Shown here: piece after piece, positions 20,566 through 23,195 of the stretch | Layout: every line of letters begins with the position of its first letter | Numbering within the stretch: position 1 is the first letter of the stretch | Source of the DNA: Promethearchaeota archaeon | GTDB taxonomy: Archaea; Asgardarchaeota; Lokiarchaeia; Sigyniarchaeales; SOKP01 | NCBI GenBank assembly: GCA_048941265.1 | Contig: JBHLNT010000050.1 | Coordinates: 1 to 26,084 of the forward strand | Direction: 5' to 3' | Length of the DNA: 26,084 bases | Translations under genes and position numbers: made by a program | The notes under the pieces: model-generated | What the model was told of the DNA's origin: nothing | The model's input: only the letters and a program-made list of their open reading frames with translations | Databases searched by the model: none

Positions 20566-21372
20566 ATGCTATTTGATGGAATTTATATGATTCGCAATGG
20601 TACCATGGGCACAAATTATGAAACTAAACTTATAATCTCCATTGTCGCTCTTATAATTTGCTTATATGATTGGTTTGAATATAAAAGATATGATTATTTT
20701 TGGGTATTTTTATTTGGAACCATCATCTGGACTTCAGTAGAGTTTTCACTTCAAATAACAGGAATGCGTGATATCGTACAGGCAAGCCTTTTCGGTACTA
20801 ACATCTCACCTTTTGTCGCGAGCGTGTTAAGAGGGACTATGGAGGGTACATTTCCAGCGGTAGTGGGAATATTCTTTGCAGATCGCGTGTTAGATAAAGA
20901 GAAGCGTAAGATCTTTTTAATCATTGGAATGGCGGCTCTAACACTATTTTTTTTAGTAACTCTTTTACAAGGGAAACCTTATAAAGATATTGGAGGTGAT
21001 GTTGCTTCTGAAAGAGAGATATTTACCCCATTTTCCTTAATATTTCTTAATTCTATATTTATATTTAATGTAATTTGGCTTTGGAAAAAGGCAACACCTG
21101 AACAAAGGACGCGTGTTCTTTTAATGTTTGTAGTTATGTTTCTCATTACTGCAGTATTTAATGTGGGAGAATACATAGCCAATACAAGATGGATTCAAGT
21201 TGAATCTGATGGAAAATATTACGAAGCAGATCCGCTTTTGGAATTTTTTGCTCTTCATATTTATAATAATATAATCGAATTTGCCAGCATGTATGTAATT
21301 TTTATTATTATACCCTATGAGTTAAAATTAATAAAAACAGCTCAAATTAAAGTAGAAGAGCCAATTAATTAG
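20566..21372 (+). CDS. Hypothetical multi-pass membrane protein
   Basis: 268-aa ORF with about 7 hydrophobic segments; GAGG upstream; no family recognised. Confidence 0.75.
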   Translation: MLFDGIYMIRNGTMGTNYETKLIISIVALIICLYDWFEYKRYDYFWVFLFGTIIWTSVEFSLQITGMRDIVQASLFGTNISPFVASVLRGTMEGTFPAVVGIFFADRVLDKEKRKIFLIIGMAALTLFFLVTLLQGKPYKDIGGDVASEREIFTPFSLIFLNSIFIFNVIWLWKKATPEQRTRVLLMFVVMFLITAVFNVGEYIANTRWIQVESDGKYYEADPLLEFFALHIYNNIIEFASMYVIFIIIPYELKLIKTAQIKVEEPIN

Positions 21373-21619
21373 CAAATGTTCAGCAATATATTTAGAGAAA
21401 TGATAAAATATATAATTCTAAATTCTTCTCTTATGTTAGAAAAATTTTTAGAAAAAAGCATATTATTAATTTAACAACTATAGATGCAATTATCATAAAA
21501 AAAGTAAGTCAGTTTGGAAATATTTCTAAAACTTTATTAGAACTAAATATTTAAGTGATAAAGGCTTTTTGATATGATAAGGAAATATACTTTATTACCA
21601 ACTTATAAATTAAGCCAGC

Positions 21620-21723
21620 GCCAGCGTATAAAATTTATCATTTAAGATAAGTTTACGCAACCGAGTAGTTAAGGAGACGGCCTGCAGAGCCGTTATTCGT
21701 GGGTGCAATTCCCACCGCTGGCT
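21620..21723 (+). tRNA. tRNA-Cys(GCA) with a 31-nt intron (21630-21660); exons 21620-21629 and 21661-21723
   Basis: Spliced cloverleaf: acceptor GCCAGCG/CGCTGGC, U8 A9, D stem TCC(G)/(A)GGA, anticodon stem ACGGC/GCCGT with loop CT-GCA-GA (GCA at 21684-21686), T stem GTGGG/CCCAC, U73 discriminator, no CCA; directly upstream of cysS. Confidence 0.92.
21630..21660 (+). other. tRNA intron at position 10/11 with a bulge-helix-bulge/loop motif
   Basis: Central helix GCGT(21624-27)/ACGC(21655-58); bulges AT^A and AA^C; 9-bp intron stem AAATTTATC/GATAAGTTT. Cutting after the second base of each bulge restores the U10-A25 pair. Confidence 0.82.
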
Positions 21724-21779
21724 CTATTTATTGAATCTTAATGTGCTTTATTAATTAACCTTTCTAGTGATTTGATAGA

Positions 21780-23195
21780 ATGAAACTTTATAATAGCTTA
21801 ACGTTTAAAAAAGAAGAATTTAAACCTTTAAATCCAAATGAAATTTTGATGTATGTTTGTGGGCCGACCGTTTATGATAGTCCACATTTGGGACATGCGA
21901 AATCAGCAGTAGTGTTCGATTTAATACGACGTTATTTCAAATTTAAAGGATTTAAAGTAAAATTAGTAAAAAATTATACGGATATTGATGATAAAATTAT
22001 TAAGAGGGCAAATGAGCGCGGTATTGATTATAAAGCACTAAGTGAGCAATATATAAAAGAATACGAGAAAATTATGGGTATTTTAAACATTCAAAAAGAT
22101 TATAAAAATCCTCGCGCAACTGATGTTATCGATTTTATGATAGAAATAGTACAAGGCTTAATTTCAAAGGGTTATGCTTATGAAAGCAATGGGTCCGTAT
22201 ATTTTGATGTAAAATCATTTTCAAAATATAAAACTATCTTACAAAATATTTCAGAGGAGGATTTAGAGAGCGAAGAAGAGGAGGAAATCGAGTCTCATTA
22301 TCTAGAAGAGAAGAGAAATCCAAAAGATTTCGCACTCTGGAAAAAGTCAAAGGAAAATGAACCTTTTTGGGAAAGTCCCTGGGGAAAAGGGAGACCCGGA
22401 TGGCATATTGAATGCTCTGCAATGGCAATTAATTTCCTTGGTGAAACAATTGATATTCATGGAGGTGGTCAAGATTTAAAATTTCCACATCACCGTAATG
22501 AAATTTCTCAATCTGAAGCTTATACTGGCAAGCCATTTGCGAATTTTTTTATGCACAATGGTTTTGTAAATGTGGATAATGAAAAAATGTCGAAAAGTCT
22601 TGGAAACTTTTTTCTCGTATCAGACGTAATAAAAGAATATGATCCGATGGTAATACGATTTTTCTTAATTTCAAGTCATTATCGTAAATCAATTAATTAT
22701 AGCCTCGATACTATATCTCAAGCAGAAAAAAATTATAATAAAATTTTAACAACCATCAAAAAGATCAATGATGCTCCCACTCAAGAGACTGATTCAGACG
22801 AGATTAATAAGTTAATTTCAAAAATAGAACTCTCAAGACAAAATATTATTAATGCAATGGACGACGATTTCAATACACCAGTCGCAATAGCTGAAATAAT
22901 GACTTTAATTAGAGATTTAAACCAAGCAACTTTAGAAAGCAACACAGCATTAAATGAGCAATTTAAAGATAAATTTTTTAGCTATATTGAGGATATTGAC
23001 AATATTTTTGGATTATTTCCAAATTTGCAAGAACAACTCACCAAAAAATTTGATAAAAAGGACGAATTAATAAAAAATTTATTAGATCTCTTTAAAGATA
23101 CAAGAAGTAGTTTAAGAGAAAGAAAACTTTATGATATCAGTGATAAGATAAGAGAAAGATTACGAGCTCTCGGAATAAATGTTGAAGACAACTAA
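21780..23195 (+). CDS. cysS: Cysteine--tRNA ligase
   Basis: YVCGPTVY, HLGH (HIGH), DFALWK, GRPGWHIECSAM, HGGG.DL.FPHH, KMSKSLGN, DDFNTP. Confidence 0.97.
   Translation: MKLYNSLTFKKEEFKPLNPNEILMYVCGPTVYDSPHLGHAKSAVVFDLIRRYFKFKGFKVKLVKNYTDIDDKIIKRANERGIDYKALSEQYIKEYEKIMGILNIQKDYKNPRATDVIDFMIEIVQGLISKGYAYESNGSVYFDVKSFSKYKTILQNISEEDLESEEEEEIESHYLEEKRNPKDFALWKKSKENEPFWESPWGKGRPGWHIECSAMAINFLGETIDIHGGGQDLKFPHHRNEISQSEAYTGKPFANFFMHNGFVNVDNEKMSKSLGNFFLVSDVIKEYDPMVIRFFLISSHYRKSINYSLDTISQAEKNYNKILTTIKKINDAPTQETDSDEINKLISKIELSRQNIINAMDDDFNTPVAIAEIMTLIRDLNQATLESNTALNEQFKDKFFSYIEDIDNIFGLFPNLQEQLTKKFDKKDELIKNLLDLFKDTRSSLRERKLYDISDKIRERLRALGINVEDN

Follow-up and report, generated by a model that had tools for sequence, protein, structure and literature searches.

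A tRNA-Cys gene of a Promethearchaeota archaeon with an intron at position 10/11 and a second copy of its acceptor strand in the presumed leader

Does the stretch from position 21620 to 21723 encode the tRNA-Cys of its genome and, if so, how could an intron be spliced out of a place where its recognition helix competes with the acceptor stem? The locus lies on the + strand of a 26,084-nucleotide stretch of DNA (positions 1 to 26,084 of contig JBHLNT010000050.1, hereafter called the window) from a Promethearchaeota (Lokiarchaeia) MAG, G000, with an assembly of 5.0 Mb in 361 contigs, 91% complete and of about 30% G+C. Without an intron reading this genome seems to have no tRNA-Cys, and its relatives likewise. 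Such misses harm completeness estimates and codon-usage inferences for Asgard MAGs. Non-canonical tRNA introns are well described in Thermoproteales (PMC4090602), introns are abundant in Asgard tRNAs (PMC11291895), and tRNAscan-SE is reported to overlook some 30% of the intervening sequences of Asgard tRNAs, chiefly those in the D-arm, and these sequences sit at BHB boundaries (10.64898/2026.10.13.758758).

The interrupted gene and its detection

The stretch 21620-21723 reads as a tRNA-Cys(GCA) gene in two exons and one intron, all on the + strand. Exon 1 (21620-21629) supplies tRNA positions 1-10, comprising the 5′ acceptor strand, U8, A9 and U10, and is delimited by contiguous orthologues. 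The A+U-rich intron of 31 nt (21630-21660) is placed at position 10/11 by sequence reading, by its removal in silico and by orthologues. Exon 2 (21661-21723, 63 bases) runs from C11 to U73 as tRNA positions 11-73. It holds the anticodon GCA (21684-21686), located by ARAGORN on the spliced form and by an anticodon-arm scan, a T-arm with the unusual T-loop UGCAAUU, and the 3′ acceptor strand (21716-21722), whose partner in folding models is either exon 1 or the leader copy described below. It ends in the discriminator U73 (21723), and CCA is not encoded. When 21630-21660 was taken out by script, ARAGORN returned a 73-nt tRNA-Cys(GCA) cloverleaf. U73 is an identity element for Cys. The original prediction, a reading of this DNA from its letters alone, had described a tRNA-Cys interrupted by a 31-nt AU-rich hairpin, and it is borne out on both counts, by anticodon, discriminator and cloverleaf and by the insert at 21630-21660.

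A tRNA-Cys BLAST search of G000 gave one match, this gene, and one candidate was found in the assembly when a GCA anticodon arm followed by a T-arm was looked for. A second intact tRNA-Cys, the prospect raised alongside the original prediction, was found in the 91%-complete assembly by neither BLAST, the anticodon-arm scan nor ARAGORN. The gene is thus apparently the functional and only tRNA-Cys(GCA) of the genome, as judged from its sequence. Downstream of it by 56 nt lies cysS (21780-23195, + strand; Pfam tRNA-synt_1e, 9.8e-128), encoding cysteinyl-tRNA synthetase, and the order tRNA-Cys to cysS is kept in relatives. An upstream ORF (20566-21372) was rejected as part of the unit, having no Pfam family and being absent beside the other loci compared. 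Nine sequencing runs are listed for 21400-22400, all of them DNA-type metagenome.

Standard tRNA finders overlook the gene, as had been foreseen. ARAGORN found no tRNA in the window, and on the G000 genome with introns allowed it made 27 tRNA calls, none of them Cys. The Rfam tRNA model matches only 21651-21723 with 32.6 bits (threshold 29) and in the wrong register, in which bases of the intron stand in for the acceptor strand, with several non-pairs, whereas an intronless orthologue scores 63.1 bits. With the same model the tRNA-Cys of the relative G001 gives no match at all.

The low score of 32.6 bits and the unusual T-loop would also be expected of a decaying pseudogene with a chance hairpin insertion. 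This reading is nevertheless highly improbable, as the gene is the sole tRNA-Cys candidate of the assembly and stands directly upstream of cysS as in relatives, its exons match those of the nearest relative at 98% identity, three genera retain the insert, with compensatory changes, and the T-loop UGCAAUU is common to nearly all orthologues, intronless ones included.

Splice motif, junction and splicing enzymes

The BHB definition, restated with the Marck-Grosjean classes in the methods of the preprint cited above, has four exon bases before the 5′ bulge pair with four intron bases before the 3′ bulge, and the 3-base bulges, which hold the cut sites, are flanked by helices (10.64898/2026.10.13.758758). 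Read in this way, and in agreement with the alignment of the related introns termed type A below, the central helix consists of GCGU, tRNA bases 5-8 (21624-21627, + strand), and ACGC inside the intron (21655-21658, + strand), with all four pairs Watson-Crick. By the same rule, the 5′ bulge (21628-21630, + strand) is made of A9, U10 and the first intron base and is predicted to be cut after U10, and the 3′ bulge (21659-21661, + strand) is made of two intron bases and C11 and is predicted to be cut before C11. With the cuts placed after the second base of each bulge, the exons meet exactly at U10|C11, and what is left is a contiguous standard tRNA identical to the orthologue sequence. The inner helix h′ (21631-21654, + strand) has 9 pairs, 21631-21639 with 21646-21654, around a 6-nt loop, at least 2 pairs being called for. 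Bases 1-4 are unable to pair with bases 12-15, which leaves no outer helix, and because of this the intron is not filed as strict hBHBh′. On its predicted pairing the motif is of class HBh′, an archaeal BHB tRNA intron without outer helix. The 4-bp helix, the 3-nt bulges, the cut at U10|C11 and the relaxed, outer-helix-less character had all been proposed beforehand and hold on this sequence.

The drawn structure was compared across eight type-A loci, where 97.8% of pair cells are paired as against 21-50% with the partners slid, an agreement far above chance in this alignment. The central helix (alignment columns 25-28 with 56-59) is 100% paired in 7 distinct sequences, with the U8 pair being U-A in 4 and U-G in 3 of them. 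The inner helix is paired in 96.8% of cells, and two of its pairs have changed on both sides in a compensatory manner. One type-A locus, L009, has a 5′ bulge that is not clean.

ARAGORN was dropped as a junction test; it alone does not fix the junction, because 17 of 49 shifted junctions were also accepted. Relatives were used instead. A whole-gene DNA search of 41 related genomes gave matches in 32, and most BLAST matches start at query base 52, which is window position 21661, where exon 2 begins. When exon 2 alone served as query across the family, 91 of 135 genomes gave matches, and with their flanks fetched 99 loci were classified. Ninety were scored and nine were left out for want of a usable 5′ strand: L113 and L145 (contig end), L030 (not tRNA-Cys), L026, L031, L032 and L173 (3′ end unmatched by the pattern), L010 (cut inside the intron) and L160 (no 5′ strand match). 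The 5′ strand is joined directly to exon 2, with no insert, in 68/90 loci; two more (L136 and L180) have the uninterrupted layout with an extra upstream match, nine have an intron inside the D-loop, and eleven have an intron at 9/10 or 10/11. In the 68 contiguous loci the 5′ strand lies directly (9-10 nt) before exon 2, running through the predicted junction, and the contiguous orthologue sequence is reproduced by no junction other than U10|C11. The junction is fixed because the BHB rule and the contiguous relatives agree, placing the intron exactly at 10/11 as originally predicted. The reading of this locus as an intron-bearing tRNA-Cys is held, from these comparisons, with high confidence.

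The eleven introns fall into three sequence types. Type A comprises eight loci in three genera (the window's gene, L004, L005, L006, L009, L126, L163 and L165), type B two loci (L007 and L019) and type C one (L024). In type B the drawn 9/10 BHB has 3/4 central pairs plus an A.A and a 5-bp inner helix; the modelled probability of its central helix is ~0, the exon pairing with another intron segment instead. Several alternative registers were tried for type B and rejected, as they give wrong products.

The enzymes for removal of such an intron appear to be encoded. Two EndA paralogues were found at two loci of the G000 genome (L001:1453-2058, − strand, and L002:1219-1815, + strand), both with Pfam N and C domains. 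The one of 201 aa has the catalytic subunit of Aeropyrum pernix, 3P1Z_B, as its best match (1.8e-37) and has the same residues at the positions aligned to Y, H and K of that subunit, which we take to be the catalytic residues. Its alignment to 3P1Z_B runs ungapped through the loop, with KPR conserved at the lysine numbered 44; in work on A. pernix EndA the RNA-binding loop lysine was reportedly important. The paralogue of 198 aa has the Methanocaldococcus (M. jannaschii) enzyme as best match and carries F and S at the positions aligned to Y and H of 1A79. With two distinct paralogues, one predicted to be catalytic and one structural, and a crenarchaeal-type (L1) loop with its lysine, the enzyme encoded is, by alignment, of (alpha-beta)2 type with a crenarchaeal-type loop. 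This fits the broad-specificity EndA that the original prediction deemed necessary at a relaxed site. An RtcB ligase is also encoded (match 8.8e-171). In Asgard archaea (alpha-beta)2 EndA with the L1 loop has been linked to relaxed motifs (PMC5829648).

A second copy of the acceptor strand in two tRNA families

A folding problem arises because bases 5-7, required for the central helix, end up in the G+C-rich acceptor stem of the finished tRNA. Directly before the gene, abutting G1, lies a spare copy of acceptor bases 1-6, GCCAGC (21614-21619, + strand), in what is presumed to be the leader, and it is proposed here as a decoy. Extended by G21620, it can pair with the 3′ acceptor strand over 7 bp. 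The copy changes the view of how a motif that lacks an outer helix and competes with a G+C-rich acceptor stem can form. It was noticed on comparing relatives and had not been mentioned in the original prediction.

Such a second copy is present in 11/11 loci with an intron at 9/10 or 10/11 as against 2/79 loci without such an intron (0/9 with a D-loop intron and 2/70 uninterrupted). The figure of 11/11 overstates independence, as it comes from three sequence types (A 8, B 2, C 1) that may share one origin. In the nine D-loop introns the splice motif uses no acceptor bases. The two uninterrupted loci with a copy are L136, where it is exact, and L180, where it is a near-copy recognised with G-U pairs tolerated. 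In genus g8, that of L136, which has no intron, one genome has GCCAGT at that place and three sister genomes have degraded versions, a pattern in these sequences that looks like decay of the copy after loss of the intron. The copy abuts the gene in type A and is followed by a 5-base spacer in type B; type C has a 9-base copy and one further base. It is invariant in 8/8 type-A loci from three genera, and 5/13 of the preceding leader columns are invariant.

Could the upstream copy be the true exon 1, and the second copy with the hairpin a longer intron at about 6/7 or 7/8? In L024 both copies hold all nine exon 1 bases and the product is identical either way, and the Rfam alignment takes the bases just before C11 as positions 8-10. 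On such a reading, however, U8-A9-U10 would become bases that vary between loci (CAA, CAC and others), while after the second copy the three bases are in every case those of the intronless orthologues, and the first copy allows no BHB to be drawn. It is scarcely credible on these grounds, and the strand at 21620-21629 is retained as exon 1.

Folding models are in keeping with a decoy. With the leader included, the copy is paired to the 3′ strand in the minimum-energy structure, and bases 5-9 are paired to the intron; with the leader removed, the normal acceptor stem forms and the central helix is absent. The modelled central-helix probability in the eight type-A loci was 0.95-1.0 with the native leader, 0.01 without it (0.33 in L009) and 0.05-0.46 with the copy shuffled, and the respective values for L024 were 0.98, 0.00 and 0.69. 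This outcome is nearly built in, since any duplicate of the strand gives the same, and the modelling is to be read as consistency and not as proof.

Other decoys were looked for in G000. A scan for a T-arm, a 3′ strand and two 5′-strand 7-mers gave 62 hits, mostly not tRNAs, and among the recognisable tRNA genes in it two copies occurred only at this gene. A hexamer triad scan of the same genome gave 55 hits, of which only two overlapping ones, at this gene, lie in a tRNA.

A second case was found in relatives by a blind scan of 30 weak or 5′-truncated Rfam tRNA hits from five of them, in which a repeated hexamer with its reverse complement downstream was scored. Three loci scored, one being the tRNA-Thr(GGU) of G001; the other two were rejected as chance matches on the wrong strand. 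In the G001 gene an 8-base exon 1 is followed by a 29-base intron at 8/9 and then by exon 2, and a 7-base repeat of the acceptor strand precedes exon 1 at a distance of 5 bases; acceptor bases 3-6 go into the central helix. When exon 2 of this gene was searched for in the family, 30 loci came up, among them L225 of G105, a tRNA-Thr with a 34-base intron at 8/9 that is unrelated to that of G001 and also accompanied by a leader copy. A copy is present in 2/2 tRNA-Thr loci with the 8/9 intron as against 0/23 uninterrupted ones, in which a stretch of 140 bases was covered, five loci with other interruptions or register shifts being left out of the count. The two copies differ (GCCTCAA and GCCTCTA), each being identical to the acceptor strand of its own genome; acceptor base 6 differs between G001 and G105, and the intron strand of the central helix changes accordingly. 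In folding models the tRNA-Thr folds behave as those of tRNA-Cys. These sequences suggest that the leader copy covaries with the acceptor in tRNA-Thr and that the arrangement is independent of the tRNA-Cys case.

Flanking DNA, a possible processing path and its meaning

Whether the copy could act in the precursor depends on its being transcribed. A conserved non-coding block (21526-21585, + strand) upstream of the gene carries two TGATAA-GG repeats and, at ~21543-21555, a TATA-like run of A/T. It aligns in 7/8 type-A loci from three genera, and DNA further upstream does not align. Rfam gave nothing for the block up to E = 5, and no consensus fold of it was convincing; the block is possibly a promoter or leader element of the intron-bearing allele. 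Further A/T runs lie near the gene at ~21584-21598 and ~21602-21612. Being TATA-like and so close, they could have transcription start at or after the copy, which would then be outside the RNA, a DNA element or a coincidence, with the endonuclease opening the acceptor stem unaided. Such an arrangement is improbable: in DNA of 30% G+C a promoter would hardly be expected to include a G+C-rich hexamer that repeats the acceptor strand exactly, an ACTAAAT-TTTAAAT-type block 50-75 nt upstream is kept across most tRNA-Cys loci of the family with a spacing that gives a leader including the copy, and the copy covaries with the acceptor in tRNA-Thr.

The main rival of a decoy in the leader accepts the intron as real and denies the copy a folding role; the copy would be a by-product of how the module arose or spread, such as a partial duplication of exon 1, and be kept by linkage. 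The 5′ module does not follow the cysS tree. Type-A modules (upstream block, copy, exon 1 and intron) are 74-83% identical over 105 bases between genomes that share only 61-74% identity in CysRS, a type B intron is found in the relative closest by CysRS (89% identity), and in genus g2 exon 2 and the trailer are common to alleles that have the module and alleles that lack it, their upstream DNA being unrelated. Sequence discordance of this kind points to exchange of the 5′ module between genomes by recombination, and it bears on how Asgard tRNA introns arrive, which has been stated as an open question (10.64898/2026.10.13.758758). It also suits the by-product reading, as does the finding that unrelated tRNA-Thr introns each come with a copy of their own acceptor, as a duplication at insertion would give. 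The copies do not, however, flank the insert as a target-site duplication would; a model of that kind was rejected, both copies being upstream of the intron and so to one side of the insert. In type A the copy does not vary where neighbouring leader bases do, it stays exact where the spacing varies between types (0, 1, 5, 9 nt), and in the intronless genus g8 its state, GCCAGT in one genome and degraded in three, is decay-like. A by-product origin without a role is regarded as possible, if rather unlikely. For a decoy function of the leader copy the sequence comparisons and folding models tip the scales slightly in favour.

Given a decoy, processing may be envisaged as follows. Transcription of the precursor would start upstream of 21614, so that the leader carries the copy (21614-21619). 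The copy would pair with the 3′ acceptor strand (21716-21722) with the tRNA-like body retained, and the real 5′ strand, thereby freed, could pair its bases 5-8 with the ACGC of the intron. EndA would cut in both bulges, RtcB would join U10 to C11, and the intron would be released, probably in circular form. Once splicing was complete, the real strand would displace the copy, RNase P would remove leader and copy, and RNase P and the CCA-adding enzyme would finish the ends of the tRNA. The explanation in its core, a functional tRNA-Cys with a 10/11 intron removed by EndA and RtcB, is considered very likely from the sequence, and the leader helper within it slightly more likely than not.

The intron shares with other non-canonical archaeal BHB introns what the sequence suggests is splicing by protein, a 4-bp helix between 3-nt bulges and a place outside 37/38. 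Its host resembles other Asgard intron hosts in having an (alpha-beta)2 EndA with the L1/crenarchaeal loop (PMC5829648), and the insertion resembles those in the D-arm of Asgard tRNAs that annotators overlook (10.64898/2026.10.13.758758; PMC11291895). What sets it apart is its position, 10/11, and a central helix built from acceptor bases 5-7 and U8. The positions given in one survey are 3/4, 20/21, 22/23, 25/26, 29/30, 30/31, 45/46, 53/54, 56/57, 59/60 'etc.' (PMC4090602), and 10/11 is not named in that list, the ending of which leaves room for others. The main text of the preprint contains no mention of Lokiarch-, Promethearch-, Cys or leader, and its supplementary tables may list such loci (10.64898/2026.10.13.758758).

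In split and permuted tRNAs (Nanoarchaeum equitans, Caldivirga, Cyanidioschyzon) pairing outside the mature tRNA likewise enables a BHB (PMC4090602). There, leader and trailer pair together and are themselves the removed 'intron' arms, whereas the leader of the window's gene mimics an exon strand, is proposed to hold the 3′ acceptor strand, lies outside the BHB and would be removed later by RNase P. Pairing of a 5′ leader with the 3′ strand of the tRNA likewise alters how RNase P views its precursor substrates; in the bacterial case described, the leader pairs with the 3′ RCCA and hinders RNase P, with neither an intron nor a duplicate of the acceptor (PMC9433436). A full-text literature search found no publication describing a leader or decoy role for such copies. 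The intron itself belongs to the already described D-arm introns of Asgard archaea, and what is added here is the leader copy in two tRNA families.

A leader-borne spare strand would be a simple answer to a recognition helix that competes with the acceptor stem, and none is described in the literature found. In its general form the proposal is that introns whose motif is based on the acceptor strand (about 7/8 to 10/11) persist in Asgard archaea only together with a decoy in a transcribed leader, and that decoy, exon 1 and intron make up one recombining module; the case for this is evenly balanced. If true, it would define an undescribed class of pre-tRNA processing element, an RNA chaperone for splicing built into the precursor, and would explain how introns have colonised the part of the tRNA nearest the acceptor stem.

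Leader copies of the acceptor strand

The second copy of the 5′ acceptor strand upstream of the gene, proposed to free acceptor bases for the splice helix, has a counterpart at tRNA-Thr(GGU) in two related genomes, G001 (L184:126-239) and G105 (L225), where the gene is interrupted by an intron at 8/9 and the leader holds a copy of the 7-base acceptor strand. In both genomes acceptor bases 3-6 take part in the central helix of the splice motif and each leader copy agrees with the acceptor variant of its own genome; the two intron sequences are unrelated. No leader copy was found in any of 23 uninterrupted tRNA-Thr(GGU) orthologues.

The tRNA-Cys loci of genus g8 (L136, L173, L015 and L122) lack the intron, and the copy of the acceptor strand 7 bases upstream of the tRNA is exact in L136 and degraded in the other three. 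These upstream copies look like a decoy decaying once the intron was lost.

Unusual loops and further interruptions

Most tRNA-Cys genes of the family have an unusual T-loop starting U-G-C, with G at position 55, combined with G-U in place of the usual G18-G19 in the D-loop (21704-21710 and from 21633 onward in the window). Genus g8 carries the standard U-U-C and G-G. It is possible that the D-loop/T-loop contact is altered in a coupled fashion.

Further interruptions occur at other places in the tRNA-Cys of relatives: introns in the T-loop, roughly 30 bases long (among others in L017, L019, L006 and L126), insertions at or within the loop and stem of the anticodon arm (L021, L022, L144, L172, L174, L180 and L181) and D-loop introns (nine loci). 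In many loci of genera g2 and g11 the variable region contains an inserted hairpin of 8-10 bases, a candidate intron or extra arm. L006 has three interruptions in a single tRNA.

The 5-Mb, 91%-complete genome of the window itself gave only 27 ARAGORN calls and 22 above-threshold Rfam matches. T-loop or D-loop introns are found in many of its tRNA genes, such as C343:16732-16794, C70:27324-27382 and C183:7380-7439, and standard tools severely under-call its tRNAs.

The upstream region and exchange of the 5′ module

An ORF of 268 residues with several hydrophobic stretches (20566-21372), for which no Pfam family was found, adjoins tRNA-Cys in the window and at none of the other tRNA-Cys loci compared. 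Some 60 bases of non-coding DNA (21526-21585) are kept as a block in seven of the eight loci with the window's intron type (type A), across three genera. Within this block lie a TATA-like stretch and a pair of TGATAA-GG repeats. The block gave no Rfam match and showed no clear fold; it may be a promoter, leader or regulator site of the tRNA-Cys/cysS pair.

The upstream block, spare strand, exon 1 and intron were compared as one 5′ module between locus L003 and L007, L004, L163 and L165, and cysS similarity was not mirrored by this module. In the closest genome the intron is of another type, and type A is common to distant genera. Within genus g2 the differences between two tRNA-Cys alleles are confined to the DNA upstream of exon 2. 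Together with the discordance between module and cysS, these alleles suggest that recombination exchanges the intron-bearing 5′ module.
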